Shown here: positions 4,800 through 53,190 of the stretch, piece after piece
Layout of the letters: each line of letters starts with the position of its first letter
Position numbering within the stretch: position 1 is the first letter of the stretch
From: a virus
Lineage: Duplodnaviria > Caudoviricetes
DNA: 64,000 nucleotides
Reading direction: 5' to 3' (one strand)
IMG/VR virus record: IMGVR_UViG_3300032243_001145
Location: 32,001-96,000 of that record
The notes under the pieces: generated by a model
Told to the model about the DNA's origin: nothing
What the model saw: only the letters and a program-made list of their open reading frames with translations
Databases searched by the model: none
Position numbers and translations under genes: made by a program

Positions 4800-5169
4800 G
4801 CCTTGGTCTATCTTTATTTTTTTCCATTTTTTTAAATAAAACTTCATCTAGGCTGTGATCTACAAATCCTCCATTACGCATTGATGCATATAGATCAAGA
4901 GTTCTAATTAATATATCAACCATTTCTTCTACAATTTCTTCTGAGCCTTTGTTTTTTCTCATTGCTTCAAGAACTTCAGTTACTTCAGAATGCACTAATG
5001 CTAATTTGTTTCCAAATACATCAAAGTTTTTTGGTTTATCCCAAAATCCTTTTTCAATAGCAATTTCATGCAGCAATGCAGCTAAAACATCTAGCCCATA
5101 ATCTGTTGCCAACTCTACATCTTTATTCGAAGCTCTCAATGAGCTGGTCGTTATTGAACCCTGATTCAT
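4780..5169 (-). CDS. MazG-like NTP pyrophosphohydrolase
   Basis: LALVHSEVTEVLEA...EEMVDILIR acidic helical motif. Confidence 0.85.
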   Translation of the reverse strand: MNQGSITTSSLRASNKDVELATDYGLDVLAALLHEIAIEKGFWDKPKNFDVFGNKLALVHSEVTEVLEAMRKNKGSEEIVEEMVDILIRTLDLYASMRNGGFVDHSLDEVLFKKMEKNKDRPRLHGNLF

Positions 5170-5374
5170 TTTTTCCTTTTAATGTAAATGTAAATGTCTG
5201 ATCATCTGAATTGTAATCAACCTTAAGCTCTTGATCTTCTGTAGCAGCATTCATAAACAAGTCCGTTGGTACGGTTATTGTTCCAAGTGTCTGAAGAGAA
5301 GCAATTAAAATTTTTGGTACGCTTAAAGCACCAAAAACTTCTTCTGCTGTACTAACCTTAATTTCTTCTGTCAT
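5123..5374 (-). CDS. Hypothetical acidic protein
   Basis: 83-aa ORF with ATGA overlap to dnaE. Confidence 0.65.
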   Translation of the reverse strand: MTEEIKVSTAEEVFGALSVPKILIASLQTLGTITVPTDLFMNAATEDQELKVDYNSDDQTFTFTLKGKNESGFNNDQLIESFE

Positions 5375-8300
5375 TTTATCTCCTTGATATTTAATGTTCC
5401 ATCATCTAATTTTGACAATGTAACTTTGCATTTCATACCTTCACGCATTTTTGCTAAAGTCATTTTATACATCGCTGGGAAAGCAATTGCTCTTGTTAGG
5501 TTCTTATCTTTATCTGATAGTACTATGTGACTCATTTGTTTTCCAGCCTTTGTTGTATAAGGGGTAAAGTTTACCACAATATACTCGTCCTCTTCAAGGT
5601 CATACTTCTTTCTATATAAATAGTCCACAAATAGATCATTTGAATCTGGATTGATGTCTGATACCTTGATGTATCTTGCTATTCTATTATCTCCAACAAG
5701 AATAAAATACATTTGTCCTGTTTCAATTTGTGTTTGCTCTGTATGAAACAAACCAATAGATCCAGTTTCATCTACAAGTTCTACCCTTGCCCAGCCATTT
5801 CCACGCTTAATAGATTTAACCATTCCAAACATAACAAAAGAACCTAAGTCATCAAACTCTTCAATTGGTCTTGCTTGTGCTTTAATTCTTGGTGGAATTC
5901 CTTCAAGATTAAATGTTGGAATGTTTAAATATTCGTAGTAATTGTCTTTTTCATTTCCTTGCCTTTTATTATCAGCAAACGCAGCACCGCCGATGGCGTT
6001 AAGAGCAGCAATAGCACGGCTATTAATGCCAGAACCCTTTTTCGATGCTTTATCAATAAAGTCAGCATAGTCACTGAACGGTCTTCTTTCTATTATTTTA
6101 TTAGCAATACTGTCTGAAATAAACTTTACTTCAGCTAAACCAAAACGAATTGCGTTATCTTGTAAAGAAAAATATACTTGGGATTCATTTATATGTGGCA
6201 AAAGCACTTTTAGTCCAAGACGCTTTGCTTCAATTAAATATTCTGTTCTCGCATCTTTATCATTTTCGTTTTTAAGAATTGAAAACATGAACTCAAGTGG
6301 ATAATAAAACTTAAGCCAAGCAGCATAATAACTAAGCATAGAGTAAGCAACAGCATGGGAGCGGTTAAAAGAATAACCAGCATGCGCTTCAAAATCATGC
6401 CATAGCGCTTCGGCTTTTTTCTTAGAAATGTGCTTTGAAGCCCCAGTAACAAACTTATCCTTAAACTGGTCAAATTCTTTTGCATCTTTTTTCTTTCCAA
6501 TAATCTTGCGGACCTTATCAGCCTCTGCCCAAGTCATACCACCCAAGTGTACGCATGCTTGCATAACCTGCTCTTGATATATGATAACACCATATGTATT
6601 CTCGGTAAAAGGCTTCATGATTGTGTGCATATAATCTACAGCTTCATTGCCATTTTTGCGGTTAATGTATGCAGCTCCCACTGTATTCATTGCACCAGGA
6701 CGAACAAGAGCATTGGAAGCAGCAAGGTCTTCAAATTTATCTATGCCCATTTTAATCAAAAGGTTTGTATATGGCGTTGCTTCTGCCTGGAACACACCCT
6801 TTGTATACCCATCGTTTAACATCTTGTAAACATTAGCATCGTCCATAGTCATTTTAGAAAGATTAATTGTTTTGCCGTATCGATCTTTAATTGATTTGAG
6901 GGTATCGGAGATTACAGATAAAGTCTTAAGACCTAGTGCATCTAGCTTAATAAGACCTATATCTGCAACTGTATCCATATCGTATGCAACGACTGGAATT
7001 CTTCCTGATACTTTATCTTGAGAGTCTTCACGAGATTCAACTGGTGCAAACTTTCTTAAATCATCCTTTGCAACAACTACGCCAGCGGCGTGTACACCAA
7101 CTGATCTAATTCTTCCACGAAGTCTATCAGCAAGCCAAACAACTTCTGGGTAACGCATTCTAAATTCTTTTGTATTAGGGGAATCAATAAAGTCTTCAAA
7201 AGTATCCACTGACTTTAGTGCACGGTTAACTTCTTGAAGTGGAACCATAAAAACACGAGAGGCATCTCTAACTACACCTTTATCTTTAAAGTATGTATAG
7301 GTAGAGATAGAGGCAACATGCTTAAATTTTTTCTTTAAATAATCTTTAACTTCTTTTCTTCTACGATCTTCAAAATCCGTATCAATATCTGGAAAGTCAT
7401 TTCTTTCTTCATTAATAAATCTAAAAAACAAAAGATCATATTTAATTGGATCTACATCTGTAATTCCTAACGTATAACAAACTAAAGATCCAGCTGCAGA
7501 GCCACGTCCTGGGCCAACCCTTATATCATTTTCTTTAGCCCAATTAATCATATCTCCAACAACAAGGAAGTATGAGGCAAAATTCTTTTTAGCAATAATG
7601 CCAAGCTCTTCGTTAAGCCTGTCAATATAAATGGGGTTTGAAGCCTTCTGAAGGCTCTCTAAGCCTTTTTCAGCCAACTCCCTTAGTCTTTCATCGGCGT
7701 CTGTCTTTGGGACTGGCAGAAGGTCTAGGCCCTGATAAAAATTATATTCTCCTACTTTTTTTGCAATTTCCATTGTATTCTCATATATGTCTGTTCGATT
7801 AATTCCAGCTTTGTTAAAGTCTGCTTCTATCTCAGAACGGCTTTGAATAAATAAATTCATATCTTGGAATGATATTCTACGGTCAGGATAAAGATAATTA
7901 AATCTATCTAACATGTCCTTGATATTTCTAGACATATCAAAGTCTGCATCCTTATCTATCTTAGGAGATGTAGATAAAATTAGTAGTGCTTCTTCTAATA
8001 TTCTATCTTCTTCTTTAGCAAAGTGAGCATCTCCTGTTGCCACCGCTTTAATTTTTAATTTATCGGCTAGTTCTAATAGTTTTCCGTTTATATCTGCAGG
8101 ATTATGTGACTGAACCTCAACATAAAAATCTGCACCAAAAGTGTTTTGAAAATCTTTTAAAATATCTTCTGCTTCTTGAAAGTTTTCTTTTTCAATACAC
8201 TTGCTTACAAGACCATTAAGGCATCCAGAAAGCACAATAATTCCTTCTGCGTATTGCTTTAATACTTCTCTATCAATACGTGGCTTGTGATAAAAACCTT

Positions 8301-8640
8301 CATTCCATGCAAGCTCTTGAAGAATATTTATATTTTCTAATCCTTTTTTATTTTTTGCTAGCAAAATAATATGATTATAAGCTTGAATAGATTTGTCTGT
8401 TTTAGAAGATCTATCAAATCTATCTGTTGGAGAAATATAAGCCTCAACACCAAGAATTGGTTTAATGCCAGTTTCTTTTGCGGCAATTTGCATATCTCTA
8501 TGTGACGAGAGAGTTCCATGATCTGTAATTGCAATCGCAGTTTGCCCAGCATCTAATGCTGCTTGACATAATTCTTTAGGTGAATTTAATCCATCCATTA
8601 ATGAATAGTATGAATGAACATGTAGGTGTGTAAAACTCAT
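5371..8640 (-). CDS. dnaE: DNA polymerase III alpha subunit (family C)
   Basis: PHP HLHVHS...TDHG, GRGSAAGSLV, PDIDTDF, HAAGVV, KLDALGL, YSFNRSHA; no intein visible. Start MSFTHLH. Confidence 0.97.
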   Translation of the reverse strand: MSFTHLHVHSYYSLMDGLNSPKELCQAALDAGQTAIAITDHGTLSSHRDMQIAAKETGIKPILGVEAYISPTDRFDRSSKTDKSIQAYNHIILLAKNKKGLENINILQELAWNEGFYHKPRIDREVLKQYAEGIIVLSGCLNGLVSKCIEKENFQEAEDILKDFQNTFGADFYVEVQSHNPADINGKLLELADKLKIKAVATGDAHFAKEEDRILEEALLILSTSPKIDKDADFDMSRNIKDMLDRFNYLYPDRRISFQDMNLFIQSRSEIEADFNKAGINRTDIYENTMEIAKKVGEYNFYQGLDLLPVPKTDADERLRELAEKGLESLQKASNPIYIDRLNEELGIIAKKNFASYFLVVGDMINWAKENDIRVGPGRGSAAGSLVCYTLGITDVDPIKYDLLFFRFINEERNDFPDIDTDFEDRRRKEVKDYLKKKFKHVASISTYTYFKDKGVVRDASRVFMVPLQEVNRALKSVDTFEDFIDSPNTKEFRMRYPEVVWLADRLRGRIRSVGVHAAGVVVAKDDLRKFAPVESREDSQDKVSGRIPVVAYDMDTVADIGLIKLDALGLKTLSVISDTLKSIKDRYGKTINLSKMTMDDANVYKMLNDGYTKGVFQAEATPYTNLLIKMGIDKFEDLAASNALVRPGAMNTVGAAYINRKNGNEAVDYMHTIMKPFTENTYGVIIYQEQVMQACVHLGGMTWAEADKVRKIIGKKKDAKEFDQFKDKFVTGASKHISKKKAEALWHDFEAHAGYSFNRSHAVAYSMLSYYAAWLKFYYPLEFMFSILKNENDKDARTEYLIEAKRLGLKVLLPHINESQVYFSLQDNAIRFGLAEVKFISDSIANKIIERRPFSDYADFIDKASKKGSGINSRAIAALNAIGGAAFADNKRQGNEKDNYYEYLNIPTFNLEGIPPRIKAQARPIEEFDDLGSFVMFGMVKSIKRGNGWARVELVDETGSIGLFHTEQTQIETGQMYFILVGDNRIARYIKVSDINPDSNDLFVDYLYRKKYDLEEDEYIVVNFTPYTTKAGKQMSHIVLSDKDKNLTRAIAFPAMYKMTLAKMREGMKCKVTLSKLDDGTLNIKEIK

Positions 8641-8846
8641 TAATATCCACCTAAACATTCATTTCTTGTATGATAAAGTCTAATCTTTGTCATAGTTTTT
8701 TTATTTGGAGCATCTAAATCTTCATTGCATGTGCTACAACTAAACGTCCATTCTTTAGTAAAAAAGTTATAGCCATAACCAAAACGATCTTTGTATTTAT
8801 TTGCCACAAATGTATCAAATGGATCTGGTATTTCATATGAAATCAT
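8640..8846 (-). CDS. Small zinc-finger protein
   Basis: CxxC...HxxxxC; TAATG overlap with dnaE. Confidence 0.7.
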   Translation of the reverse strand: MISYEIPDPFDTFVANKYKDRFGYGYNFFTKEWTFSCSTCNEDLDAPNKKTMTKIRLYHTRNECLGGY

Positions 8847-8868
8847 GTTGATATTCTACTAAATAATA

Positions 8869-8894
8869 CAGGGGCGGTCAATAGACCGCCCCTG
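8869..8894 (-). terminator. Intrinsic terminator after SSB gene
   Basis: Perfect 11-bp stem CAGGGGCGGTC/GACCGCCCCTG, 4-nt loop, followed by TATTATTT on the minus strand. Confidence 0.85.
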
Positions 8895-8906
8895 ATATTT
8901 AACTTT

Positions 8907-9578
8907 TTACCAGTCTAAGTTGCTGCTTGTGGCTGAAGGCTCATCTGCATGAGTACTTTCACCAGCAAAAAAAGCTTCTTGTTCTGTATACGGCATATCA
9001 CGAACTGCTGATGTTTCAAGATCAAACAACTCTAGCGTTGAGGCATCAAAAGGAGTTTCATCTTTTGCTAACGGGATGATTGTGTAGCTTGTGTCTGTCT
9101 TTGTTCCAGAACGCTTAACACGCCACATCAGATTAGTGATGCTTCCCATTTCGCCAGCATATTCAATTAATGTTGGAGTAATTGTTTTACCGCTTGATCC
9201 CTGAGAAAGAATAGCCACGTATGGGTCTTCCTTGCCATCGTCAACAAGAACGTTAATGTAAAGTCGTGAACGACCCTTCCATCCTGCCTTGTAATCTTTA
9301 CGGTGTTGCTCACATCCGTAGCATTTGCCTTGGTCTTCCATTGTACAAAGCCCCTTGCGGCGATAATCCTTTGGATTTGTATGCTCTACAGCAATAAATC
9401 CTAAACCAGCTTTTTCATTGTAAGTTGGTGAATCTGGATCTAGTTCCTGCAAGAAACGAATCTTTACGCTTTCTGCATCCTCTAGCTTTACCCAACGACC
9501 TTTTGTACCTTCGCCACCACTTGACTGCGGCTTGTCCATAACTTTATTAAGATCTTTCAGACCTTTTACTATTCCCAT
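8907..9578 (-). CDS. Single-stranded DNA-binding protein (gp32-like)
   Basis: VKIRFL, H...C...CxxC zinc site, RLYINV, RSGTKTDTSYTI, acidic tail ending LDW; lies between primase and polymerase. Confidence 0.75.
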   Translation of the reverse strand: MGIVKGLKDLNKVMDKPQSSGGEGTKGRWVKLEDAESVKIRFLQELDPDSPTYNEKAGLGFIAVEHTNPKDYRRKGLCTMEDQGKCYGCEQHRKDYKAGWKGRSRLYINVLVDDGKEDPYVAILSQGSSGKTITPTLIEYAGEMGSITNLMWRVKRSGTKTDTSYTIIPLAKDETPFDASTLELFDLETSAVRDMPYTEQEAFFAGESTHADEPSATSSNLDW

Positions 9579-9626
9579 ATTTTTCTCCTTTATAGTTGAT
9601 GGTATAAATCCATTTGTTTATTATTT

Positions 9627-10625
9627 TTAATGGGTCCAAGATTGATATTCAATATTGGAAACTGCGTTTTTAATACAGGCTTTAATTTCCTCTTCGGTCA
9701 AATCGCCAGCATCTTTTGCATCATGTGGATATATCTTACCATATTCATACGAAGCCCACAAGAGGTCTTTGTTTTTTAATCTAGAGGCTATACTATTAGC
9801 AAGCTCACGCCCAGCGTGGTCCGCATCTGTCATTAAAGTAACCTTATTAAAATATCTATTTATTAATGCCAAGTTTTCTGTGGATATATGTCCACCAAGT
9901 GTTGCAATAACATTGGGGAACCCAGCCTGGTGCACACGGATTGCATCGAAGCTAGATTCTACAATAATAACATTGTCACCTATTTTTTTAGCACGGTGAA
10001 TGTTAAACATAGTTTTGCTTCTTGGTAAATTAGTGCTGTTCTTAAATTTCTTTTCTGAAATAGAACGACCAACAATTCCAACTGCCATCCCATCTGGACT
10101 ATGCACTGGAACTGTAACCATGTCTTGCTTTGGAGAATAGCCTAAAGAAAAATGAGCCATTGAAGACATATCAATACCTCTAGATTTAAAATAGTTTTGT
10201 GCCTCTGTACTTGCAACTAGGTCGTTGTACAAATTCTTTAATATTTCTTCTGGAAACTCTACAAAGTCTGGCTTGTCTTCAAGCATATCCGTCAAAAGTT
10301 CATCAAAGTTTTCTAGTGTTTCGGTTTCTTTTGAATAGACATATCTCATTGCTTCAAAATCGTTCTTATGCAAAACTCTTTTAACTAATTCTATTAGTGA
10401 TCCAGTTTCACCACACGCTGGATTAAAACACAGCCATGCTCCAGTTGTTTTGCTTATGCTACAGCTTGCGCTATGTCTATTGGAATGAAATGGGCAGTAG
10501 AAAGAGATCTCTATATCTGTTTCACCCGCTATCTGTAAGCCAAGGCTTTTTACAATTGCCTTTATATGTTGCTTAGAGTATTGCGTGGTATCAGCTTTCC
10601 TTGCGTAATTGCTTCGTGCCGCCAT
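9627..10625 (-). CDS. dnaG: DNA primase (CHC2 zinc finger + TOPRIM)
   Basis: CPFH...CFNPAC; IIVESSFDA; DADHAG; KDAGD. Confidence 0.9.
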   Translation of the reverse strand: MAARSNYARKADTTQYSKQHIKAIVKSLGLQIAGETDIEISFYCPFHSNRHSASCSISKTTGAWLCFNPACGETGSLIELVKRVLHKNDFEAMRYVYSKETETLENFDELLTDMLEDKPDFVEFPEEILKNLYNDLVASTEAQNYFKSRGIDMSSMAHFSLGYSPKQDMVTVPVHSPDGMAVGIVGRSISEKKFKNSTNLPRSKTMFNIHRAKKIGDNVIIVESSFDAIRVHQAGFPNVIATLGGHISTENLALINRYFNKVTLMTDADHAGRELANSIASRLKNKDLLWASYEYGKIYPHDAKDAGDLTEEEIKACIKNAVSNIEYQSWTH

Positions 10626-10852
10626 GCTGTCTTCTTTCCTACATAAGTGCCATAGAGTGTCATTAAGAACATCCATGTTGTGCCATCAAATTCTACCGAA
10701 AAATTGGTGTCTATGTCAAGTACCCTAAGATACCCTTTGTCCCTCATTTGGTGCGTAAGCATACTTTCATATTGATGCTTAATGCGAACCATATCAGAGT
10801 CATCTAAAAATTCAACTCTAACCTGGAATCTTTTTATCGGTTTGTGATTCAT
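10562..10852 (-). CDS. Hypothetical protein
   Basis: ORF bridging helicase and primase; start MNHKPIK. Confidence 0.65.
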   Translation of the reverse strand: MNHKPIKRFQVRVEFLDDSDMVRIKHQYESMLTHQMRDKGYLRVLDIDTNFSVEFDGTTWMFLMTLYGTYVGKKTAWRHEAITQGKLIPRNTLSNI

Positions 10853-12080
10853 TATTTTGGAACGGATTCTCATAAATCTCTTTGACGATACCTCTGTTGA
10901 TATCCCAATCTAAGTATAAACCAAATTCATGTCCATGTCGATTCTTGCGTGAGACAATCTCAATCATGTTAGTTCCTGGATATCTGTGTACAGCCATAGC
11001 CATATCAGCATCGTACTCAATAGCCTTTGACCATGCTACCTGAGACATCATTGGTGGATTATCTTGGTCTGAAACATCATCTGCAGTCGCTGCGGTAATG
11101 TCAATAATAGGAATATTGTTTGAAACTGCAAGCATCTTAAATTCACGAGAAACATTTCGGTTTCTTTCAACTTCAGAATTACTTCGCTTGTTATCATTAA
11201 ATAGCTGATGATAGTCAAGAATAACTAGGTCTGGTTTATGCTGGTCAATCTTACCTTGAATAGTTGCTGGTGTTACTTCTGTATTTCCTTCATTTGAAAT
11301 AAGAATAAAGCTATTCTTGTCTGCAAATTTCTTTGAGGACCATGATCGAAAATTATCAATATTAATATCACCCTTTGAAAAATCAGATGCCTTAAATAAC
11401 CCAGAGCCAAGCATGGTATAAATACGATCACGCATATTTTCTGGTGACATTTCTAGTGAAACAATCATTGGTTTAAATCCCTGCTCCCATGCTTTACATG
11501 CAAGATAAGAAGTAAACCATGTCTTACCACGCCCTGGCCAGCCGATAGCGACGATAAGGTGTCCTGGAGCCATACCTGTTGGGTATGCTAAATCTATAGC
11601 TTCAAAACCAGTCTTGATTCCTGGAGAACCGCCCATTTCTGCAGAGCGTACCTTTAACAACTCCATATATCTAATTGCTGCATCTGCATCTGTAATATCT
11701 AAATCTCGAACATTGTTTGTAAACCTACTAAGCCCAGCCAATTGTGACTGCATGTTTTCAAGAACTCTTGAAGCAGCGTCTTCTTTAAGAGATGATCCTG
11801 CACGAAGAATAATAGTCTTAAGTTTATTAGAAATAAATTCATTCTTAAGAGTATCTAAATAATATCCCGTTTGACCCTTTACGTCTACTGGCTCAAAGTC
11901 TTTAAACTTTTCTTGAAGGATTCCAACCTCTGGGACTGCTTTAAATTTATAGTAATATGACTTAAGGCCATCCCAAATATCTTTGTGTGAGGTGAATAGA
12001 TCATCAACATTGTCTGCAAGTAATGTACTGATGTCTTTATTCTTGCATACCGCTGAGATTAGCTCTGCTTCTGTATTCAC
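10818..12080 (-). CDS. dnaB: Replicative DnaB-like helicase
   Basis: GWPGRGKT, SLEM, ILDYHQL, IEYDAD, KNRHG. Confidence 0.93.
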   Translation of the reverse strand: MNTEAELISAVCKNKDISTLLADNVDDLFTSHKDIWDGLKSYYYKFKAVPEVGILQEKFKDFEPVDVKGQTGYYLDTLKNEFISNKLKTIILRAGSSLKEDAASRVLENMQSQLAGLSRFTNNVRDLDITDADAAIRYMELLKVRSAEMGGSPGIKTGFEAIDLAYPTGMAPGHLIVAIGWPGRGKTWFTSYLACKAWEQGFKPMIVSLEMSPENMRDRIYTMLGSGLFKASDFSKGDINIDNFRSWSSKKFADKNSFILISNEGNTEVTPATIQGKIDQHKPDLVILDYHQLFNDNKRSNSEVERNRNVSREFKMLAVSNNIPIIDITAATADDVSDQDNPPMMSQVAWSKAIEYDADMAMAVHRYPGTNMIEIVSRKNRHGHEFGLYLDWDINRGIVKEIYENPFQNNESQTDKKIPG

Positions 12081-12400
12081 TCTGGCCCGCCTTGCTCTAC
12101 CATCTTCTTCGTTTCTTGTAGTAACAAACGACGCTTTTCTTTATCTTTTTCAATTTCAGTTCTTGCAATGTCCATCTTATCAAAATTGTATAGAAAAAAT
12201 TGTATTGTGTGCCCATTCTTTGTTAGATGAAAATAATATTCCAACAACTCTTTTGCACGGCTAAATCCTACACTATCAATTACATCTTGCATAGCCCATT
12301 TTTCACGAAACTTATTAATTGATGCTTCTTTGCCATACTTCTTTTTATATAAATTTTGAAAAAGTGTAAGTAAGATATATGGCTCTTTATTATTTGCCAC
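12077..12400 (-). CDS. Hypothetical protein (possible helicase loader)
   Basis: Overlaps the dnaB start; function inferred from position only. Confidence 0.65.
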   Translation of the reverse strand: MANNKEPYILLTLFQNLYKKKYGKEASINKFREKWAMQDVIDSVGFSRAKELLEYYFHLTKNGHTIQFFLYNFDKMDIARTEIEKDKEKRRLLLQETKKMVEQGGPE

Positions 12401-44442: not shown

Positions 44443-45564
44443 CTACTGCTCTTCTAGTATTTTTACTCTTGCTGTAAGCTCTTGTACCGCTTTAATTAAT
44501 GGAGAAATAAACTCTTCGTATCTCAATGCCTGTTGACCCTCTGGGTCAGCGACATCTGATATTACCCATCCGCCAAAGTCTGCTACTCCAGCAGCATCTA
44601 ATACTGATTTAACTTCTTGTGCAATTAAGCCATAATGCGTTCTGCTTCCATCTATCTTATTATACTTAACAGGATTAAGGTTATTTATAAAATCTAAACC
44701 AAGGTCTGATGTTATTATGTTTTCTTTTGTTCTTGCATCAGATATCACTGTGGCTGCGGAATTTAAATATATGTTTTTCCAGCCTCTTGTTGTGCGCTGG
44801 TCTCCAGGTGGATTCAATGGGCCCATTAGACCTAACGAATAAAGATTTGTGGTTAAAGGAAACCAGTTTGAATTTACTCCTATTGTGGAAATATCTGTTG
44901 CTGAGTAATTTAATGAAATTCTTGTAGCAATAGGATCTATGTTTGCATTTGTTCCAGCTGGTCCTGCTGGTCCAGTTGCTCCCGCTGCACCGTCAGCACC
45001 ACGGGGTATTGTAAAGTTTAAAACTACATTACTTGATGTTCCAGTATTTGTAACAATAGCGTTTGTTCCTGCTGCACCTGTAGTTACTGGGCTAGCAATA
45101 GTAATTGTTGCTGCTGCATCACCTTTTGGACCAGTTGCTCCAGTTGCTCCAGTTGCTCCAGTTGCTCCTACTGGTATAACAAAATTTATTGTTTGTGATG
45201 GAGATGTCCCAGTAATAGAAACTTGTGGTTGTGTTCCTGGGGCTCCAGCGGTTACTGTTCCAGGAGTTAATACATTAGCTGGGCCTGGGCCACCTAAAAC
45301 TCCATCAGCACCTCTTGGGATATTAAAAGTTAAATGTTGCGTTGGCGCTGCACCACTAATATACACAGAAGCTTGCTCTCCCGCAGAAATCGTATTAGTT
45401 GCAATTACATCCAAGGCATTAGCAGGACCTGAAGGCCCTTGTGGGCCTGGATGTGCAGCAATATATGCAGCAATATCATTTCCAAGAATACCAAGATCTC
45501 TAGGAACGTCGGGTGAGTCCGTGTAAGTTGGAAAGTGCCATCCATTAACGCCTGTAGTTGCCAT
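44443..45564 (-). CDS. Collagen-like fibre protein with C-terminal S74 chaperone
   Basis: Gly-X-Y runs, three FxIPxG modules, SDARTKENI...LNPVKY...GLIAQEV...LIKAVQEL. Confidence 0.87.
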   Translation of the reverse strand: MATTGVNGWHFPTYTDSPDVPRDLGILGNDIAAYIAAHPGPQGPSGPANALDVIATNTISAGEQASVYISGAAPTQHLTFNIPRGADGVLGGPGPANVLTPGTVTAGAPGTQPQVSITGTSPSQTINFVIPVGATGATGATGATGPKGDAAATITIASPVTTGAAGTNAIVTNTGTSSNVVLNFTIPRGADGAAGATGPAGPAGTNANIDPIATRISLNYSATDISTIGVNSNWFPLTTNLYSLGLMGPLNPPGDQRTTRGWKNIYLNSAATVISDARTKENIITSDLGLDFINNLNPVKYNKIDGSRTHYGLIAQEVKSVLDAAGVADFGGWVISDVADPEGQQALRYEEFISPLIKAVQELTARVKILEEQ

Positions 45565-45570
45565 TTTTTA

Positions 45571-45579
45571 ATTATACCA
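45571..45579 (-). promoter_or_regulatory. Extended -10 promoter, leaderless geometry
   Basis: TGGTATAAT-N6-ATG. Confidence 0.65.
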
Positions 45580-45581
45580 TC

Positions 45582-46241
45582 TTACTTTTTATATACTGAA
45601 ATTGGAGACATAAACCTGGAACCACTTTTAATATTAGATACTCCATGTTTATAGGGTTCTACTGAAGGGAACATTATAAGGCTGCCAGCTTTTGGCTTTA
45701 AGTCTATTCCATGTCCAGGAAAATATATTTCTCCACCTTCATAATCATCATTTAGATATGTAACAATAGAAAATGAAAGTCCTTTATGTCCGTCTTGATT
45801 ATCACAATGTGGTCCCATACCTTCACCAATATTCCATTTTCTAATTGGAATCATATTAAGGTCTAGATCGTAATCGTCTTTATTTAATCCATGACCATCC
45901 ATATATTTTACAAAACACATTTCTGTAGCCATAATAAAGCTATTTGATATATATTTAATTTTTTGATCTAGTCTTTCATCACCAGATGTTTGTGATAGAT
46001 TTGAAGTTTTTATAATTTTACTTGATCCATAAATATGATCGTTTTTATTACTGGATATCCAGTCTTCCCATTTAGTTATTGATCCATGAGATTTTTCTAA
46101 TAAATCAACCTCATTAATAAAATTAAGAAGCTCTTCTGGATAACTTAAAACATTTTCAAAATACCAAATATTATTTTCTAAAACCGTTAAATCAAACATG
46201 TGATACATTTTTTGTGCCATTTCATCTTGGCTACTAATCAT
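45582..46241 (-). CDS. 2OG-Fe(II) oxygenase, prolyl-4-hydroxylase-like
   Basis: HCD...YLNDDYEGGE...KPKAGS...HGV...R. Confidence 0.9.
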   Translation of the reverse strand: MISSQDEMAQKMYHMFDLTVLENNIWYFENVLSYPEELLNFINEVDLLEKSHGSITKWEDWISSNKNDHIYGSSKIIKTSNLSQTSGDERLDQKIKYISNSFIMATEMCFVKYMDGHGLNKDDYDLDLNMIPIRKWNIGEGMGPHCDNQDGHKGLSFSIVTYLNDDYEGGEIYFPGHGIDLKPKAGSLIMFPSVEPYKHGVSNIKSGSRFMSPISVYKK

Positions 46242-46995
46242 TTTTTTTAACCTCTTTTACTGGAATTTTTTCTCCAGTTGGAGTTAGAACTAAACCTTTT
46301 TCTCTAACCTCTTCCCAAACTTTTTGTTCTTCTTTTTGATAAGCTCTTACTCCTGCAAGTTCTTTTGCCCACTGGTCTCTAATCTCTTGTGGATAATCAG
46401 ACTCTTCTCTATCATCCCAAAATGATCCCAAAGTATATCTTTCTTTTTCTTTTACAACTGTAACTTCGTGCATATTTTTATGTCCACCATGAAATATTAA
46501 AAATGATCCTGATTTTGGAGTAATTTCCATTGGGTCTTTACCGTCTTGAAAGTAAAACTTTAAAGTGCCACCTTCAAAATCATCATTTAAATACAAAAAT
46601 CCTGCGTATCTACTTCTAGTAAATGCTCCCATTTTGCCTTCGTTATCGCTATTGTCAGAATGCTTTGGAGCAAATGCTCCTGGTAACCACCTTTGACTAT
46701 GAAAACTTATTTTTGACATTTTTTCTACAGGCTGACCTGCAACTTCAGCGGCAGCTTTTTTAAATCTTTCTTGAGTGTCTGTAAACCAAGTTGAGCTTAA
46801 GCCTACTTCTGATAATATAGGATCGTTGTCTGGTGGGTACATAGCTGAGTATGATTCATAAAAAGAAATGCCTTTCCAGTAACCAGGATCAGCTTCTTCA
46901 AATTTTTTAAAAATTTTAATTACTGCATCACATTCTTCTTTTGTAATAAAATTATCATATTGAAAAATGTCTTCTGTTAGCTTAGTAAGTTTCAT
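46234..46995 (-). CDS. 2OG-Fe(II) oxygenase, prolyl-4-hydroxylase-like
   Basis: HSD...YLNDDFEGG...HEV...RYT. Confidence 0.9.
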   Translation of the reverse strand: MKLTKLTEDIFQYDNFITKEECDAVIKIFKKFEEADPGYWKGISFYESYSAMYPPDNDPILSEVGLSSTWFTDTQERFKKAAAEVAGQPVEKMSKISFHSQRWLPGAFAPKHSDNSDNEGKMGAFTRSRYAGFLYLNDDFEGGTLKFYFQDGKDPMEITPKSGSFLIFHGGHKNMHEVTVVKEKERYTLGSFWDDREESDYPQEIRDQWAKELAGVRAYQKEEQKVWEEVREKGLVLTPTGEKIPVKEVKKND

Positions 46996-47815
46996 TTTTG
47001 TTCTTTTCTTTTGATAAAATTTCTTTATATTCTTCATATTCTACTGGCTTGCCATCTTTTAAATAACGCATATTTCTTGGATCATCATAATCAATTCTTT
47101 CTGATTCCATCTTTGCCCATCTATATGCTCCCCATTTTAATTGATTGTCTAGCCATTCTTTTGTTCCAGGAAAAGTGTGCATAATAAAATTTCTTACAAA
47201 AAACTTTTCTCCATTATGAATTGTCTTTACACCGTGATAATATGGCTCTATTGATGGGAAAACAACAATATCTCCTGCTTCTGGCTTATGATTTGTAAGA
47301 ACTCCATCTACATAAAATTCAATATCTCCGCCATCATAATCATCATTTATATACATTGTGCATGTTATAAAAAACTTTTCTCCTGGAGCATCTTTTTGTG
47401 ATGTGATGTGATCTGTGTGATACTGCATTGTCATGTTATTGCTTAATACATCAACCTGATCAAAATATTTTGAAAAAGAACATCCACTAAATCTCCATCC
47501 TTCTGGCAATTCAACATTTGTTTTTTCAACATAATCCATGATTACTGCATTGTAGGCTTCTTGAATTTCATCATAAAAAGCTTTTTCTTTTATATACATA
47601 TCTTGAGATTTATCAATTTGCTCAGTCTCTCTATCGTCTTTTATTTGACTGTAAGTTCCAAAGTGTGCCCACTGGTCCCATTTTTTTAAAAAATATTTTC
47701 CTTCAGAAGTTTTTTCAGACTCTTTCATAACTTCATAAAGATTTTTTACATCTTTTAAAACATTTTTGTAAACAAAAACTTTAGGGTAGATTTCATTATA
47801 TTCTAAATTATTCAT
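46982..47815 (-). CDS. 2OG-Fe(II) oxygenase, prolyl-4-hydroxylase-like
   Basis: HTD...YINDDYDGGD...HGV...K. Confidence 0.9.
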   Translation of the reverse strand: MNNLEYNEIYPKVFVYKNVLKDVKNLYEVMKESEKTSEGKYFLKKWDQWAHFGTYSQIKDDRETEQIDKSQDMYIKEKAFYDEIQEAYNAVIMDYVEKTNVELPEGWRFSGCSFSKYFDQVDVLSNNMTMQYHTDHITSQKDAPGEKFFITCTMYINDDYDGGDIEFYVDGVLTNHKPEAGDIVVFPSIEPYYHGVKTIHNGEKFFVRNFIMHTFPGTKEWLDNQLKWGAYRWAKMESERIDYDDPRNMRYLKDGKPVEYEEYKEILSKEKNKNETY

Positions 47816-48489
47816 GGTTGTTTTTCTCCTGTGTGCTTCATTATTGTCCAAAAAAATGGTGATGTAAATCTATTTCCAGATCTTACTGGTCTTACCCCGT
47901 GAGTGTAAAATCTATCCCCTGGGAAAAAATAAGCTGCGCCAGCTTTTGGTTTAAACTCTATTCCATGTTGTGGAAAATAAAGCTCCCCACCTTCATAGTC
48001 ATCGTTAAAATAAAAAAGTCCTGCTATGTCGTAGTGTGGGAAATCGTTTGGCCTACCTTTTTCAATTCCAGTATGAAATTCTTTGTCGGCATGTGGTTCT
48101 TGTCTTGCTCCAACAGGCCATCTAACAATTGCTGGACCAGTCTCTCTAACATCAACATTAAAAAATTTATCAACTTCTATTTTTAATCTTGCAATCATAT
48201 TGTTAATTAAATCTAATATTGTTGGATCCGACGCCATAAGAGATTTATATGTGCAGACTCTGTCTTTCCAAACATCTGCATCGTATAAAACTAATCCGTC
48301 TTCATCTACATGAGTCTCTGTTTTGTCCCATATTTTATTATTTAAAGCAAAATCCATTAATCTTTTTCTTTCATCAATACTAAGAAAATTTTCTAGCTCA
48401 ACAATATTTTCTGAGGATGATCCAAAAAAACCCGAAGGAGTCATTGATTTGGGTATGTGCATATGTAAATCTTTATTAACTATTTCCAT
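47812..48489 (-). CDS. 2OG-Fe(II) oxygenase, prolyl-4-hydroxylase-like
   Basis: HAD...YFNDDYEGGE...HGV...RFT. Confidence 0.9.
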   Translation of the reverse strand: MEIVNKDLHMHIPKSMTPSGFFGSSSENIVELENFLSIDERKRLMDFALNNKIWDKTETHVDEDGLVLYDADVWKDRVCTYKSLMASDPTILDLINNMIARLKIEVDKFFNVDVRETGPAIVRWPVGARQEPHADKEFHTGIEKGRPNDFPHYDIAGLFYFNDDYEGGELYFPQHGIEFKPKAGAAYFFPGDRFYTHGVRPVRSGNRFTSPFFWTIMKHTGEKQP

Positions 48490-48531
48490 TTTTTCTCTTT
48501 TCGGTATTGTGTTTTGCTTTTGGTATACTTA

Positions 48532-48540
48532 ATTTTACCA
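48532..48540 (-). promoter_or_regulatory. Internal extended -10 promoter upstream of four tandem oxygenases
   Basis: TGGTAAAAT in the largest gap (56 nt) of the cassette. Confidence 0.5.
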
Positions 48541-48545
48541 TATAA

Positions 48546-49241
48546 TTAATTAATTTCCTGTATTTCAAATTTAAAGCTATTAATCTCATGTTTTCCTATT
48601 TTATTTCCTTCGTGATCTATTGCTTTTTTGTACCAATCTGAGGTTCTAGAATTAATCCTGCCATACTCTGTCATTGCCTCTACATAATCAAACCCGTGTA
48701 TTACATCCGTAGGAGGAGTATCATTAATAATTGCCGTTGAGTTATTAATTTGAGATAAAGATATTGGAACAATTGCTGCAACTGGTGTGCCAGCTTTTAT
48801 TGTTATAACTTTATTTGGAGATGTCACTTTCCAAACAATATGTAAAGCACCAGTATAAAATGAAGTAGAAATTATTGATGTAAAACATTGTGCTCCATCT
48901 ACAAATTGATTTGGAACTGGAATAGATAGGAGGCTAAGATTTTCATTTGTTTTAAAAACTAAATTTGTTGGAAAGCCTATAACTCCTCCGCCTCTTTCAA
49001 AATAACAATGTTCTTTTCCAGACAAAACTTCAATATCTCCATCATGGCCTTCTGTTGATTTGCCTTTCCAAATAAAAGAAATATCAACTGGAAAGGATAT
49101 ACCAAAACCCATTTTATTTGGAAGTGTTATTGGAAAACAGTTATATGCATATTTATTTTCATGCATCCATTCTCTATTGGATTCAAGTGGTGACAGTATT
49201 GTTTTTGGACCTTCTGTTTTATAAACATAAACTTTATTCAT
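48546..49241 (-). CDS. DUF6065-like protein
   Basis: REWM...AYNCFPITLPNKMGFGI, VPNQF, IGKHEI. Confidence 0.75.
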   Translation of the reverse strand: MNKVYVYKTEGPKTILSPLESNREWMHENKYAYNCFPITLPNKMGFGISFPVDISFIWKGKSTEGHDGDIEVLSGKEHCYFERGGGVIGFPTNLVFKTNENLSLLSIPVPNQFVDGAQCFTSIISTSFYTGALHIVWKVTSPNKVITIKAGTPVAAIVPISLSQINNSTAIINDTPPTDVIHGFDYVEAMTEYGRINSRTSDWYKKAIDHEGNKIGKHEINSFKFEIQEIN

Positions 49242-49938
49242 TATTTTTGTTTACCTTAAGCCTTATAGCCTTAACTTGATGCTTTCCTATAGAGTTGCCT
49301 AGATGATCTAATGCATCTCTATAAAAATTTGTCCACTTGCCAGTTCTGTTTATTTCATATACAAAATTTGCATATTCATTTGAATTAAAAGATTTTGGCG
49401 GCAAAGAACTAATTTCTTCAAAATTTATTTTTGAGTCTTGAAGATCTTCTAAATTAATAGGCAAAATAGAAAAAATTGGAGTGTTTGCTTTAATTGTTAT
49501 TTCAATATTTGGCCTTGTAATTCTTAATGCACAGGGAAGCTCTCCTCTAAAAAAAGAAGAGCTAATCAAAGTAGTAAATGGCTGAATTCCGTCTCTTAAA
49601 TAATTTGGAACAGGCATAGTCAAAATGCTATAATTGCTTTCAGTTTTAAACATTATTCCTGTATTAAAGCTTACGGTTGAATTTCCTCTTTCTGCATAAG
49701 CATATTTTTCTCCTGCAAGTATTTTAACATGCTCAGCACTGGAATCTGAAATTCCATCCCATATAAATGTTATATCTTCTGGAAAAGATATGCCCCACCC
49801 AAGTTGATTTGTTAAACTTATTGGAAAACATTTATAAGCATGTGCTTCCCAGGTTTCATCCATCCAATCTCTTTTAGCTGAAAGCTGTGATATGTCTGCA
49901 TAACCTTCTCTTATTTGATAAGCTTTAATTTCTGGCAT
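49234..49938 (-). CDS. DUF6065-like protein
   Basis: RDWMDET...HAYKCFPISLTNQLGWGI. Start moved to MPEIKA. Confidence 0.78.
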   Translation of the reverse strand: MPEIKAYQIREGYADISQLSAKRDWMDETWEAHAYKCFPISLTNQLGWGISFPEDITFIWDGISDSSAEHVKILAGEKYAYAERGNSTVSFNTGIMFKTESNYSILTMPVPNYLRDGIQPFTTLISSSFFRGELPCALRITRPNIEITIKANTPIFSILPINLEDLQDSKINFEEISSLPPKSFNSNEYANFVYEINRTGKWTNFYRDALDHLGNSIGKHQVKAIRLKVNKNNE

Positions 49939-50584
49939 TTCTTCTTTCAACCATACTTCTATATTCATCATTATGAGCATTATCATTATAGTCAAGCATT
50001 GTAACAATAGAATACTTTGTTCCTTCTTTGACAGGCATAGCTATATGAGAATAAATATATGTAGATGGAAAAATATAAAGATCTCCAGCTTTTGGCTTAA
50101 CTGTAATATTTAATTTTGGAAACGCTAGTTCTCCTCCCAAATATTCTTCATTTGGATAAGCCACTAAAGAAACTGTTGAACTATAAGAAAACCCATGATC
50201 AGCATGTTCTTGAAAATGTTGTCCTGGACCATATGAAATAAAATTCATTACTTCCCAAAAATCCATCCTTACATTATGTGCAGCGCAATAATCTTCAGCT
50301 GCTGGGCCCTGTACTTTTTTTGCCAACTTCCATATTTCATTTAATTCATAATCATATTCATTTTGAGGATATTCTATGGGGCCTAATTTTATATCTTTGC
50401 AATCTCTATAGTCTAATTTTTTTTCATTGTATCCAACAGTAGCATCTCTCCATGAATAGCCACCATTGCTTTTGTCAATTAAATTAACTAGGCGTTCCAT
50501 TAAATTTAGTTCTGGTTTTACAACATCTCTATACACCCAAAGTCCTGGAAATATTATTTCTTTTGTAGTCCACGTTTGTTCCAT
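49925..50584 (-). CDS. 2OG-Fe(II) oxygenase, prolyl-4-hydroxylase-like
   Basis: HAD...YPNEEYLGGE...H...GTKYS (Lys as the 2OG ligand, as in P4H). Confidence 0.9.
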   Translation of the reverse strand: MEQTWTTKEIIFPGLWVYRDVVKPELNLMERLVNLIDKSNGGYSWRDATVGYNEKKLDYRDCKDIKLGPIEYPQNEYDYELNEIWKLAKKVQGPAAEDYCAAHNVRMDFWEVMNFISYGPGQHFQEHADHGFSYSSTVSLVAYPNEEYLGGELAFPKLNITVKPKAGDLYIFPSTYIYSHIAMPVKEGTKYSIVTMLDYNDNAHNDEYRSMVERRNARN

Positions 50585-50598
50585 TTTTTCTCTTTCTC

Positions 50599-51177
50599 TT
50601 ATTTATATTCTAGCATATCATTTGGCAATATGTCAATAATTATATGTACTCTATCAAAATCAGTTGGGTTAGAAACAGAATGAAGCATTTGATTGTTTAT
50701 TTCGTACCATCCGCCTTCTTCCATATGTATAGTATTGTCCATTACAGTAAAAGTTATTAATTTTTTTGTAATTATAGGAATATGTACTCTTCTTGAATAA
50801 TGAAGTAGGGCTCCACCATCAACGTGTTTTCTTATATAAGATTTAGATTTTAATTTAACAAACTCACATCTTATTATTTTGCCAGAATAATAGTTTTCTA
50901 AATCATTAAAAATTTTTTTAAGTTCTTTATTTGATAATTCATTTTTAAGAGAATTAACATAATTAGTTTTAATTGGATCACCAACAGCCCATTCATAATC
51001 TGTTTCACAAATTCTAAACATTTCCGTGTCTGTGTGCGTGTATCCTTTTTTTTGTCTACTTTGATCTAAAAGCCATTCTTCAGAAAATTTTTCAATTTCA
51101 TTTTTTATTTCTTTGACTTCAAATTCTCCTAATTTTAAAATTGACCATTCAGTATTCTTTTTTAATCTTTTGTACAT
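50599..51177 (-). CDS. Aspartyl/asparaginyl beta-hydroxylase-family 2OG oxygenase
   Basis: HVD...RVHIPI...EINNQMLHSVSN...RVHIIID. Confidence 0.85.
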   Translation of the reverse strand: MYKRLKKNTEWSILKLGEFEVKEIKNEIEKFSEEWLLDQSRQKKGYTHTDTEMFRICETDYEWAVGDPIKTNYVNSLKNELSNKELKKIFNDLENYYSGKIIRCEFVKLKSKSYIRKHVDGGALLHYSRRVHIPIITKKLITFTVMDNTIHMEEGGWYEINNQMLHSVSNPTDFDRVHIIIDILPNDMLEYK

Positions 51178-51856
51178 AATCGTACATCTCCATATCTAAT
51201 GAATTTAACTCTTTGATTTTGTCTATGTGTTTTTTATTAAATTTAATTCCTACATCATAAGAAGAATTTGCTTTATCCGAATGCTTAAACGTCATAAAAC
51301 CAAACTCTTTTAATAAACTTTTATTTAAATCTATTTTAAATTGATCAAGCTCATCTAACGTATAAGCTTTCATTTTTTTAATATTTAAAATTACATCTTT
51401 TATATTTAATTTATATTCTTCTAAATACCAAGCACTATTTACTGTATTTTGAAATTGTAAGACATCTTCATTAAATTTTTCTATATTTAATTTACCAGTT
51501 AAAAATTTTGATTGTAAATTAGATTGCATTGTAGACTCTTCTCCATAAAGCCATCTATCTAATTTTTCTTCAGCTTCTTTTCCTGTTCTTTTTGGCCCTG
51601 TTGTATATTTAAAGTAGCTTATAAATCTTTCTACTGGGTCCCTAACTATTGTAAAAATTTCTGGGTTTTCCATATATTCTAATGGCATCAATCCAAAATG
51701 ACCACCTACAAATTTACTTTTTTTAATTTTTTCTGTGTCTATTTTAGTTCTATTTGATATAAAATGTTCTACCCCATTTGATATCAAATGGGGTATTACA
51801 TTATTTTTTATGTATATGCCAGATGTTCTTGGAATATGCAAATGATATATTGACAC
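51149..51856 (-). CDS. Sulfotransferase family 2-like protein
   Basis: 5'-PSB-like HLHIPRTSG, GHFG, 3'-PB-like RDPVERFISY, C-terminal NSLDMEMY. GTG start overlaps the upstream stop (TAGTG). Confidence 0.8.
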   Translation of the reverse strand: MSIYHLHIPRTSGIYIKNNVIPHLISNGVEHFISNRTKIDTEKIKKSKFVGGHFGLMPLEYMENPEIFTIVRDPVERFISYFKYTTGPKRTGKEAEEKLDRWLYGEESTMQSNLQSKFLTGKLNIEKFNEDVLQFQNTVNSAWYLEEYKLNIKDVILNIKKMKAYTLDELDQFKIDLNKSLLKEFGFMTFKHSDKANSSYDVGIKFNKKHIDKIKELNSLDMEMYDYVQKIKKEY

Positions 51857-53190
51857 TAAAACCCTTTACGGTTGTGTACTATCAGGTCTCCTGCAATTAA
51901 AATATCGTTTGGAGAAGCATCAAATTCATAAACGGTTCTTTCTTCATTTATAATTTTTGTTGATTCTACCATTACCTCTTCAAAAATATTTTCATTATTT
52001 TTTACAAATATAGAATCTCCTGGTTCAATAATTCCTGTTGTACTAAAGAAATATGTGCCTTTCTTTTTTGTAAGAATGGTTTGTTCTAGTGAGAATCTCT
52101 TAGAGTAATCATCATTAATAATCATGGTTGCATCTTTTATAGAAGATTTTATTGTTTTAATTTCAGATTTTACTAAATGAATATTATTAATTGATTCTGA
52201 TGACCATGTGTATGGATCTATTGCAAACTCGTCCATCTGACCATCCCATGTAGCTGACCATATTTGATCTCCGATTTGCATTTCTTTTGCTTTTTTAAAT
52301 CCTATCAGATCTCCTGGTGTAACTACCATTATTAGTGTGTCTTCATCAATACACCAGAAGCTTGGTGGTGAGAAGAAGCTTGGTGGTGAGAAGAAGGTTG
52401 GTGGTGAAAAGAATCCTGGTGGTGAAAAGAATGTTGGTGGGAAGAACGGTGGTGAGAAGAAGCTTGGTGGTGAGAAGAAGCTTGGTGGGAAGAACGGTGG
52501 TGAGAAGAAGCTTGGTGGTGAGAAGAAGCTTGGTGGGAAGAACGGTGGTGAGAAGAAGCTTGGTGGGAAGAACGGTGGGAAAAACGGTGGGAAGAACGGT
52601 GCAAGTGTTGTAACCTGATTAGAGCCAGCAGACTCTAATGAAACCCCATTTGCATTTGTAGCTTTCACATAATATGTTTGCGATGTATTAGCAGTTTCAG
52701 CAACAGTATATGATGTTGATCCTGTTGAATATGTTGGGCCATCGCTTGATCTTAGTGTGTAAGTTGTTATTCCCTTTCCGCCATCTGCAGGAGCAGACCA
52801 AGAAACATAGTCTTGATTTACCTGGGCTGTTGCAGATGGAGCGGAAGGGGTTGCTGGAACTGTAGTTGATGTTATAGCAGTAGATGCTGAAGAATCAGGT
52901 GATGTTCCATAAGAATTTGTTGCTGTTATTGTAAATGTATAAGAAGTGGCAGAAGCCAATCCTTCTACTACTATAGGGGATGAGCTTCCTGTTGCTGTTT
53001 GACCACCAGAAGAAGTGACTGTAAATGATGTTGCTGGATAAGTTCCGTCTGGAGTAAATGATACAGTAGCTGCACCATTATTGTATGCCCGATTTGTTCC
53101 TATATCTGTTGCAGATACATTTGTTGGAGCAAATGGAGCTAGGAAATTATCCTGTCCTGATGATTTAATACCAAATTTTTTGTTAGCCAT
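51856..53190 (-). CDS. 2xFN3 - (PPxFF)n repeat - Hint (intein-like) domain protein
   Basis: Two FN3-like domains, about 82 aa of Pro/Phe/Ser repeat, then C-IDEDTLI...VYEFD...LIVHN-RKGF. Confidence 0.85.
   Translation of the reverse strand: MANKKFGIKSSGQDNFLAPFAPTNVSATDIGTNRAYNNGAATVSFTPDGTYPATSFTVTSSGGQTATGSSSPIVVEGLASATSYTFTITATNSYGTSPDSSASTAITSTTVPATPSAPSATAQVNQDYVSWSAPADGGKGITTYTLRSSDGPTYSTGSTSYTVAETANTSQTYYVKATNANGVSLESAGSNQVTTLAPFFPPFFPPFFPPSFFSPPFFPPSFFSPPSFFSPPFFPPSFFSPPSFFSPPFFPPTFFSPPGFFSPPTFFSPPSFFSPPSFWCIDEDTLIMVVTPGDLIGFKKAKEMQIGDQIWSATWDGQMDEFAIDPYTWSSESINNIHLVKSEIKTIKSSIKDATMIINDDYSKRFSLEQTILTKKKGTYFFSTTGIIEPGDSIFVKNNENIFEEVMVESTKIINEERTVYEFDASPNDILIAGDLIVHNRKGF
52354..52599 (-). 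repeat. In-frame tandem repeat of 12-nt (PPFF) and 18-nt (PPxFFS) units
   Basis: Perfect 48-nt higher-order unit at 52441-52488 and 52489-52536; 15 FF dipeptides plus a terminal FW. Confidence 0.95.

Follow-up and report, generated by a model that had tools for sequence, protein, structure and literature searches.

Candidate self-removing Hint domains at the C-terminus of a family of phage proteins with an aromatic/proline repeat

Bacterial intein-like (BIL) domains of type A (Amitai 2003; Dassa 2004; summarised in PMC4031507 and PMC7765530), of which the C. thermocellum BIL (PDB 2lwy) is a solved example, have a C-terminal His-Asn pair and no nucleophile at the +1 position; they yield mostly cleavage products and can ligate their flanks via the freed alpha-amine (PMC4031507). 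In BIL2 of Tetrahymena thermophila BUBL1 (PDB 6y75/6tmm), the thioester is resolved by a Lys side chain, and the N-extein becomes conjugated to other proteins (PMC8616854). In an engineered intein, the Ssp DnaB M86 G-1F/H73A mutant (6fre), a bulky side chain at −1 can replace the block-B His and compensate its loss in the N-S acyl shift (PMC6333167). Outside inteins and Hedgehog, BIL and Hint domains have lacked a clear biological setting. Here we describe a Hint domain that ends a 444-residue phage protein encoded in a 64,000-nucleotide stretch of viral DNA (the window; positions 32,001 to 96,000 of IMG/VR record IMGVR_UViG_3300032243_001145), and a viral family of 141 clusters that offers such domains a fixed architecture. 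We consider it probable that the domain, which looks catalytically intact and resembles type A BILs, is a self-removing C-terminal cap; its chemistry, timing and virion location we infer.

The record is a complete phage genome of 115,319 bp with terminal repeats, and it holds the Hint domain in a single copy. In the protein (P0001 in our set), a short N-terminal segment precedes a pair of fibronectin type III (FN3) domains, which would be the displayed part; a repeat and the Hint domain follow. The last residues of the repeat are ...SPPSFW(279), and C(280)-I-D-E-D-T-L-I comes immediately after; the protein itself ends ...VYEFDASPNDILIAGDLIVH(439)N(440)-R-K-G-F-stop, with Arg at +1 and four residues after the Asn. 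An earlier note, made from the sequence of the window, had described the PPSFW|C junction, the His-Asn pair, the RKGF tail and a block-B motif SLEQ; these statements and their coordinates were all correct on re-translation. The parts of the gene are listed below, with the evidence for each; pLDDT is the predicted local distance difference test of AlphaFold2 (AF2) models.

51856..53190 (-), whole gene, encoding the 444-residue FN3-FN3-(Pro/Phe repeat)-Hint protein; open reading frame (ORF) list and translation
52606..53133 (-), two FN3 domains, about residues 20-195; Pfam fn3 E 6.7e-6, pLDDT 94-98, all-beta by DSSP
52354..52602 (-), FFPP / SFFSPP repeat, residues 197-279, the N-extein tail ending in Trp279; translation, pLDDT 42-58
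51871..52353 (-), predicted Hint domain, Cys280-Asn440, 161 residues; AF2 pLDDT 94.6, Foldseek, VIA and profile-to-PDB matches
52351-52353 (-), codon of Cys280, the block-A nucleophile at position 1; Cys in 85/85 relatives covering the column
52081-52092 (-), block B, S367-L-E-Q370, at the canonical TxxH position with His replaced by Gln; sequence and RadA intein alignment
51871-51876 (-), His439-Asn440, block G; conserved in the family (counts below)
51859-51870 (-), C-flank R-K-G-F, four residues, with the family Lys at +2; translation and family tails
51856-51858 (-), stop codon of the Hint gene; sequence

Fold and conserved positions of the domain

Searched alone, the 444-residue protein matched Pfam Intein_splicing at E 0.075, and the domain sequence itself, run directly against those of the PDB, returned noise only (E about 0.8, sortase and others). 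Among full-length members of the family, 23 of 73 matched Intein_splicing, the best at 1.7e-14, and a profile of 42 relatives run against solved structures placed the C. thermocellum BIL 2lwy first (E 9e-8), with the Pho RadA intein at 7e-7. We built an AF2 model of the domain on the family alignment used for the profile. The model had a mean pLDDT of 94.6, and Foldseek matched it to Hint structures (E 3.8e-7), with probability 1.0 for BIL2, RadA, DnaB, RecA, the C. thermocellum BIL and Hedgehog. VIA-align gave a Z of 18.2 to Tetrahymena BIL2 6y75 (root mean square deviation 2.0 Å over 139 aligned residues), 17.5 to Hedgehog 1at0 and 16.9 to 2lwy (1.9 Å), and 84 Hint chains in all scored a Z of at least 8. 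Judged on the predicted structure, assignment to the Hint fold is certain. The top Z values are effectively tied, so the subclass is not readable from the fold, and Pfam assigns the relatives variously to Intein_splicing, Hint_2, PT-HINT and Vint.

The domain shows the all-beta, horseshoe-like fold and the block-A Cys of the Hint superfamily and departs from it at block B, where S-L-E-Q stands in place of Thr-x-x-His. The position is homologous and the Ser/Thr is kept; the catalytic His is absent here. The profile aligns 'rfSleqPiLvkR' to 'kvTpsHPvLlfR' of the Pho RadA intein, and the same column holds His in 47 relatives, so the earlier placement of SLEQ at block B was sound. The suggestion that there is no homing endonuclease was borne out as well, the 161 residues forming one compact Hint module in the model. 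In a model of the full-length protein (mean pLDDT 86.4), the two FN3 domains form independent beads, joined by an unstructured linker to a Hint that is monomeric; the 83-residue repeat, with a pLDDT of 42-58 and no secondary structure, is predicted to be unstructured.

An exhaustive phmmer search returned 141 cluster representatives (clustered at 50% identity) at E < 1e-3, 71 of them below 1e-10, and in nearly all 141 the domain lies at the extreme C-terminus of its protein. Overall identity within the family is 25-45%. Cys1 is present in 85/85 relatives that cover the column, the block-A Thr in 82/90 and Ser or Thr at the first block-B position in 142/143. The fourth block-B position is Gln in 63, His in 47 and Glu in 32, which leaves the His in about one third. 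The penultimate His is kept in 122/146 (Tyr in 17) and the terminal Asn in 137/143. Neither of the two earlier checks open to computation, on a predicted Hint fold and on conservation of Cys1 and His-Asn in homologs, refuted the Hint reading. The residue before Cys1 is unconstrained (Gly 20, Phe 16, Arg, Ala, Tyr and Ser 7 each, Pro 6, Trp 4).

After the Asn, the +1 residue is most often Lys (56), then Leu (12), Ala (9), Gly (8) and Arg (7), and Cys, Ser or Thr in only 5/119. Among His-Asn members the C-flank is mostly one (38), four (22) or five (19) residues long, and 111/119 have Lys at +1 or +2, often as the single last residue (38 cases). Whether the tail was a Lys followed by the stop or of the xK... 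type showed no pattern with the block-B residue across the family. The Tyr-Asn subfamily (P0057, P0062, P0065, P0083, P0086-P0088, P0094, P0122, P0128, P0130, P0133) has Glu as its block-B residue, and its tails, of the pattern [AG]-[YC]-P..., lack Lys, with Cys or Tyr at +2 where others have Lys.

Nearly all of the 67 full-length relatives listed have a short-period aromatic/Pro repeat (FFxPP, FGFSP, FSFTP, YFPYFP, IIATP, poly-Pro) immediately before Cys1, and direct fusion of the Hint to the repeat, which the earlier note had seen in one protein, thus holds in essentially every relative. The N-terminal heads vary: among 73 members, 32 have fn3 and 16 PASTA, and TIG and PKD also occur. This is a large viral family with a fixed architecture of binding domains, a disordered aromatic/Pro tail and a Hint domain with a Lys tail. 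Literature searches, thin on subscription journals, found no publication on this phage Hint family, and the intein reports they returned concerned terminase, ribonucleotide reductase and similar genes.

By sequence the domain matches type A BILs in the defining features, with Cys1, a C-terminal His-Asn, a non-nucleophilic +1 residue (Arg) and no homing endonuclease, and it is most simply filed beside them. Its hosts also resemble theirs, being variable, non-essential, surface-type proteins with swappable FN3/PASTA heads and presence/absence polymorphism. Unlike type A BILs, the phage domains lie at the extreme C-terminus with a flank of 1-5 residues and a conserved Lys, have Gln or Glu for the block-B His in two thirds of members, carry about 25 extra residues between blocks A and B, and are always fused to an aromatic/Pro repeat in a phage fibre-module setting. 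BIL2, the top structural match, shares Cys1 and the terminal Asn, and the conserved Lys just after the Asn in our family is compatible with Lys-isopeptide splicing of the BUBL type. However, identity to BIL2 is only 11-14%, and BIL2 is flanked by ubiquitin-like domains and keeps its block-B His (H69), whereas the window protein has a four-residue flank. Hedgehog/Hog (1at0) has a similar position, C-terminal in a precursor whose N-terminal part is released via a (thio)ester, as would happen here; the window domain differs in keeping His-Asn, in ending four residues later and in having no sterol-recognition region. Class-1 mini-inteins (Ssp DnaB, Pho RadA, Mtu RecA) can be aligned at blocks A, F and G and at the block-B position, with fold Z values of 15-17.6. 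In contrast to them, the window domain has no +1 Cys, Ser or Thr, no C-extein and no conserved host protein as an insertion site, and its polymorphism takes out adjoining genes along with the Hint, rather than excising it exactly from inside a host gene.

Sister phages with and without the domain

A search with the FN3 half of the protein returned hundreds of relatives; of the best 120, which we examined, 74 had a Hint and 46 did not. In a series of syntenic phages (L015, L016, L017, L030-32, L037, L042, L044, L048, L054), the gene behind the Mtd_N fibre gene ends at the repeat. The closest such case, L026/L027, was found on two contigs from two samples, one of 115.6 kb, with an FN3 part 74% identical to that of the window and the same synteny. 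Here the gene ends ...PPGFW-D-stop, at the exact Hint junction, and tblastn aligned it to query residues 6-279, that is, up to Trp279 of the window protein. About 70 nucleotides after the gene end, the ortholog of the window's first P4H-like gene starts. Three elements are thus missing as one block in L027, with no remnant: the Hint domain and the two genes that follow it in the window.

51149..51856 (-), sulfotransferase gene, whose GTG start overlaps the TAG stop of the Hint gene (TAGTG); Pfam Sulfotransfer_2 E 1.6e-5
50599..51177 (-), gene of the Asp/Asn beta-hydroxylase family (AspH-like); Pfam Asp_Arg_Hydrox E 1.9e-11

The presence/absence block corresponds to window 50599-52353 (-), to be compared with L027:5001-5900, and on the upstream side it is bounded exactly by the Trp|Cys junction.

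Gain and loss have been frequent. On a maximum-likelihood tree of the FN3 half (20 distinct rows), Hint presence requires 6 changes, at least 5 of which are forced by well-supported branches, and the presence labels cluster no more than shuffled labels do. The two halves of the protein also differ in how closely they resemble their counterparts in other phages: FN3 versus Hint identity to the window was 96% versus 69% in L009, 63% versus 82% in L003 and 77% versus 50% in L025. Across relatives, Hint identity rises and falls with the identities of the sulfotransferase (r 0.96, 7 loci) and AspH (r 0.98, 5 loci), and not with that of FN3 (r 0.44). These discordant identities indicate that the repeat behaves as a recombination joint, and that Hint and sulfotransferase (with AspH) behave as a unit. 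The downstream P4H-like genes and the FN3 half follow histories other than that of the Hint/sulfotransferase/AspH block.

We asked whether Hint-less alleles always end in a basic residue, as a mimic of a spliced Lys would; about half do, and L027 ends W-D. Some Hint-less FN3-repeat proteins (P0156, P0157, P0160 at L016:6001-6774, P0148, P0182, P0209, P0259, P0219) end in a tiny Cys-rich motif, for example C-P-E-C-T-K-G-C-P-C, and one has a Cys inside each repeat unit (PFFPNFCP). The Cys-rich end may be an alternative C-terminal cap or a cross-link.

A second type of Hint occupies the same position in L033, L035, L036, L040, L046, L047, L049 and L061, in FN3-repeat genes that start near 5000 in each locus. 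Its first residue is Ser1, preceded by Lys, His or Asn, and all seven distinct sequences that we compared retain the block-B [ST]-x-x-His. Its C-terminus has no His-Asn (V-F-D, V-Y-D, V-H-D or V-L-E stands there) and runs on into an acidic tail of 5-45 residues without Lys. This Ser1/TxxH type resembles Hedgehog or type B BILs. Because all versions share a nucleophile right after the hydrophobic repeat, we argue that the activity under selection would be the N-terminal acyl shift with release of the FN3-repeat chain. The Hint-less sister phages, the Ser1 version without Asn in the same slot, and the lineages with and without the block-B His amount to built-in natural controls. They make three questions testable: what use a terminal Hint is to a virion protein, how an acyl shift proceeds without the block-B His, and whether a Lys tail completes a splice.

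Proposed removal of the domain from the protein

According to the explanation that we favour, Cys280 would, after folding, attack the Trp279-Cys280 peptide bond in an N-S acyl shift. Once the thioester was resolved, the FN3-FN3-repeat chain would leave the Hint domain, and cyclisation at His439-Asn440 would detach the four-residue RKGF tail. The mature FN3-FN3-(Pro/Phe) product would have its C-terminus at Trp279 or very shortly beyond it, and would equal the molecule for which sister phages have a Hint-less gene. Before modification or assembly of the protein, the cap would probably mask or manage its tail, which is disordered and very hydrophobic. The Trp279 thioester may be hydrolysed, joined to the Lys tail or transferred. 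Protein engineering could make use of a self-removing C-terminal tag of only 161 residues with tolerance for Trp, Phe, Gly or Pro at −1.

Several points weigh against this explanation. Cleavage is a prediction for every member of the family, and the protein is a putative virion component, judged by the position of its gene among fibre genes. Simple hydrolytic removal does not need a strict His-Asn or a Lys in a tail of 1-5 residues, and their conservation hints at extra chemistry. The first step normally depends critically on the block-B His, in whose place Gln370 stands here; block-A position 3 is Asp282, and no other obvious residue supplies a His. The bulky Trp279 may put strain on the scissile bond, by analogy with the engineered intein. 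Across the family, an aromatic −1 residue was not significantly linked to loss of the block-B His (20/54 versus 7/29, Fisher p 0.33; p 0.36 for bulky residues), which leaves compensation by Trp279 as a possibility.

The missing block-B His is nevertheless not an argument for an inactive N-terminal site, because Cys1 is invariant in the Gln and Glu lineages alike. There is also a reciprocal pattern between columns 282 and 370 of P0001: where block B has His, block-A position 3 is mostly Gln, and where block B has Gln, position 3 is Asp (15) or His (9). The pattern may reflect relocation of the catalytic His, a reading confounded by phylogeny. The earlier suggestion that the missing His could leave only C-terminal cleavage appears unlikely, given the invariant Cys1 and a sister Hint type that keeps the N-terminal nucleophile and drops His-Asn.

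The alternative that survives best is that the C-flank captures the thioester, so that the mature chain would be ...PPSFW joined to RKGF. The attacking group could be the alpha-amine of Arg441, freed by Asn cyclisation as in type A BILs, or the epsilon-amine of Lys442 before cyclisation, as in BUBL BIL2. This would be a genuine sub-variant of self-removal and compatible with it, and we hold it to be unlikely. The earlier note had stated that the domain cannot splice normally. Class-1 splicing is indeed excluded, there being no +1 nucleophile and no real C-extein, but the statement goes too far: flank ligation occurs in type A BILs that share these features (PMC4031507), BIL2 achieves it via Lys (PMC8616854), and Lys at +1 or +2 is conserved here. 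The retention of His-Asn before so short a flank, together with the conserved Lys, its last-residue position in many members and its replacement by Cys or Tyr in the Tyr-Asn subfamily, would be best explained if the tail helps to resolve the thioester, and the closest structural match, though tied with others, is the BIL2 that forms a Lys epsilon-isopeptide. On the other hand, the Ser1-type Hints sit in the same slot with neither His-Asn nor a Lys tail, a basic end is found in about half of the Hint-less alleles and not in L027, and the net product would differ only trivially from a chain that could be encoded directly.

We find it less probable still that the Hint is a docking, or 'follower', domain that recruits the sulfotransferase and the AspH-like hydroxylase to the Pro/Phe repeat and then removes itself via the Cys1 thioester. 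This would apply the leader/follower logic of ribosomally synthesized and post-translationally modified peptides to a full-size virion appendage protein, and would possibly end in ligation of the tiny tail through a Lys side chain. The joint absence of the three elements in L027, with a break exactly at the Hint junction, is in keeping with such a role, as are the TAGTG overlap and the parallel identities of Hint, sulfotransferase and AspH; yet the three are adjacent, and a shared history can be pure linkage. Every gene that we found with the sulfotransferase as a neighbour was a Cys1/His-Asn Hint gene; these were the genes of the window clade, L005 and L025, together with L010 (33% identity) and L066 (at +1.7 kb). 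None of the 12 Hint-less genes examined had it, but 15/22 Hint-bearing loci have none nearby, and the loci are few and related. A general rule that a Hint implies a sulfotransferase was rejected on the same count. A predicted complex of Hint and sulfotransferase lends weak support, with a score of 0.42 versus 0.03 for the best of 3 controls, at least 75% contact agreement and a partner pLDDT of at least 82. One of the three runs, however, scored 0.01, and the score lies in a band that is more often wrong than right: the mark is reached by 58/80 solved complexes and 2/110 mismatched pairs, and at 0.60 or below by 7/80 and both passing mismatches. The sulfotransferase itself carries PAPS-loop-like HIPRTSG and RDPVERFIS motifs that are invariant in 8 orthologs.

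The earlier note had also proposed covalent attachment of the chain to another virion component or a small molecule. In such a reading an amine or hydroxyl of the acceptor, a second virion protein or a small molecule, would attack the Trp279 thioester and so anchor the FN3 chain by its C-terminus in the manner of sortase or Hedgehog. The layout of binding domains, Pro-rich flexible linker and C-terminal activating module would suit this, and BIL2 offers a precedent for conjugation to other proteins (PMC8616854). Nevertheless, the Hint-less alleles in syntenic sister phages show that the chain functions without a thioester. The product thus works without an activated C-terminus, which makes obligatory covalent anchoring or an essential adduct less likely, and the repeated gains and losses among close relatives count against covalent attachment to the virion in the same way. 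No adduct-recognition region follows the Hint, sterol-recognition-like or other, and the −1 residue is unconstrained; cyclisation of the chain and a small-molecule adduct found nothing in their support. We regard transfer to another molecule as very improbable.

That the domain is dead for processing and kept for binding or structure, or is a tolerated passenger spreading by recombination in repeat DNA, would fit the loss of the block-B His, the frequent gain and loss and the recombination between the FN3 and Hint halves, but we give it very little credence, as a dead domain would not keep Cys1, the Asn and the block A/F/G motifs at 25-30% identity, and a passenger would still need self-cleavage to be tolerated, which is mechanistically the favoured explanation.

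Fibre genes around the locus and other observations

The Hint gene belongs to a group of fibre genes that lies upstream of those for portal, protease and capsid, and it is directly preceded by an Mtd_N-headed fibre gene. Behind it come the sulfotransferase and the AspH-family hydroxylase. Between this Hint block and a collagen-like fibre that has a peptidase S74 chaperone, an array of five P4H-like 2-oxoglutarate (2OG)-Fe(II) oxygenases and two DUF6065 genes occupies window 44443-50584 (-). This array is also kept in the Hint-less sister phages L027, L044, L048 and L054, and is therefore independent of the Hint.

Like the peptidase S74 chaperone domain (window 44443-45564), the Hint would be a C-terminal, removable, self-cleaving module on a phage appendage. 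The likeness is a functional analogy only, as fold and chemistry are unrelated: S74 uses a Ser-Lys dyad and depends on a trimer, whereas the Hint protein is predicted to be beads on a string. A reading of the protein as a trimeric fibre with an S74-like chaperone was rejected because the full-length model has separate FN3 beads and, after a linker without structure, a Hint that is monomeric.

PHROGs had no family for the 444-residue protein, and megablast of the region against GenBank phages gave no match. With tblastn, the sole match among GenBank phages was Phage NCTB, whose protein is 28% identical and annotated as 'tail protein, contains intein domain'. In that phage (L001, LT598654), three Hint-bearing ORFs lie in one fibre region (4960-12219); a stand-alone 153-residue 'intein domain protein' directly follows a Hint-ending tail protein, and there is also a 1304-residue 'large intein domain protein'.

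In a more distant phage group, with or without a Hint, the FN3-repeat gene is followed by tandem paralogous genes of about 210-220 residues that have no Pfam match (L010:4356-6264, L015:6800-8110, L017:7233-8527, L034:6342-8925).

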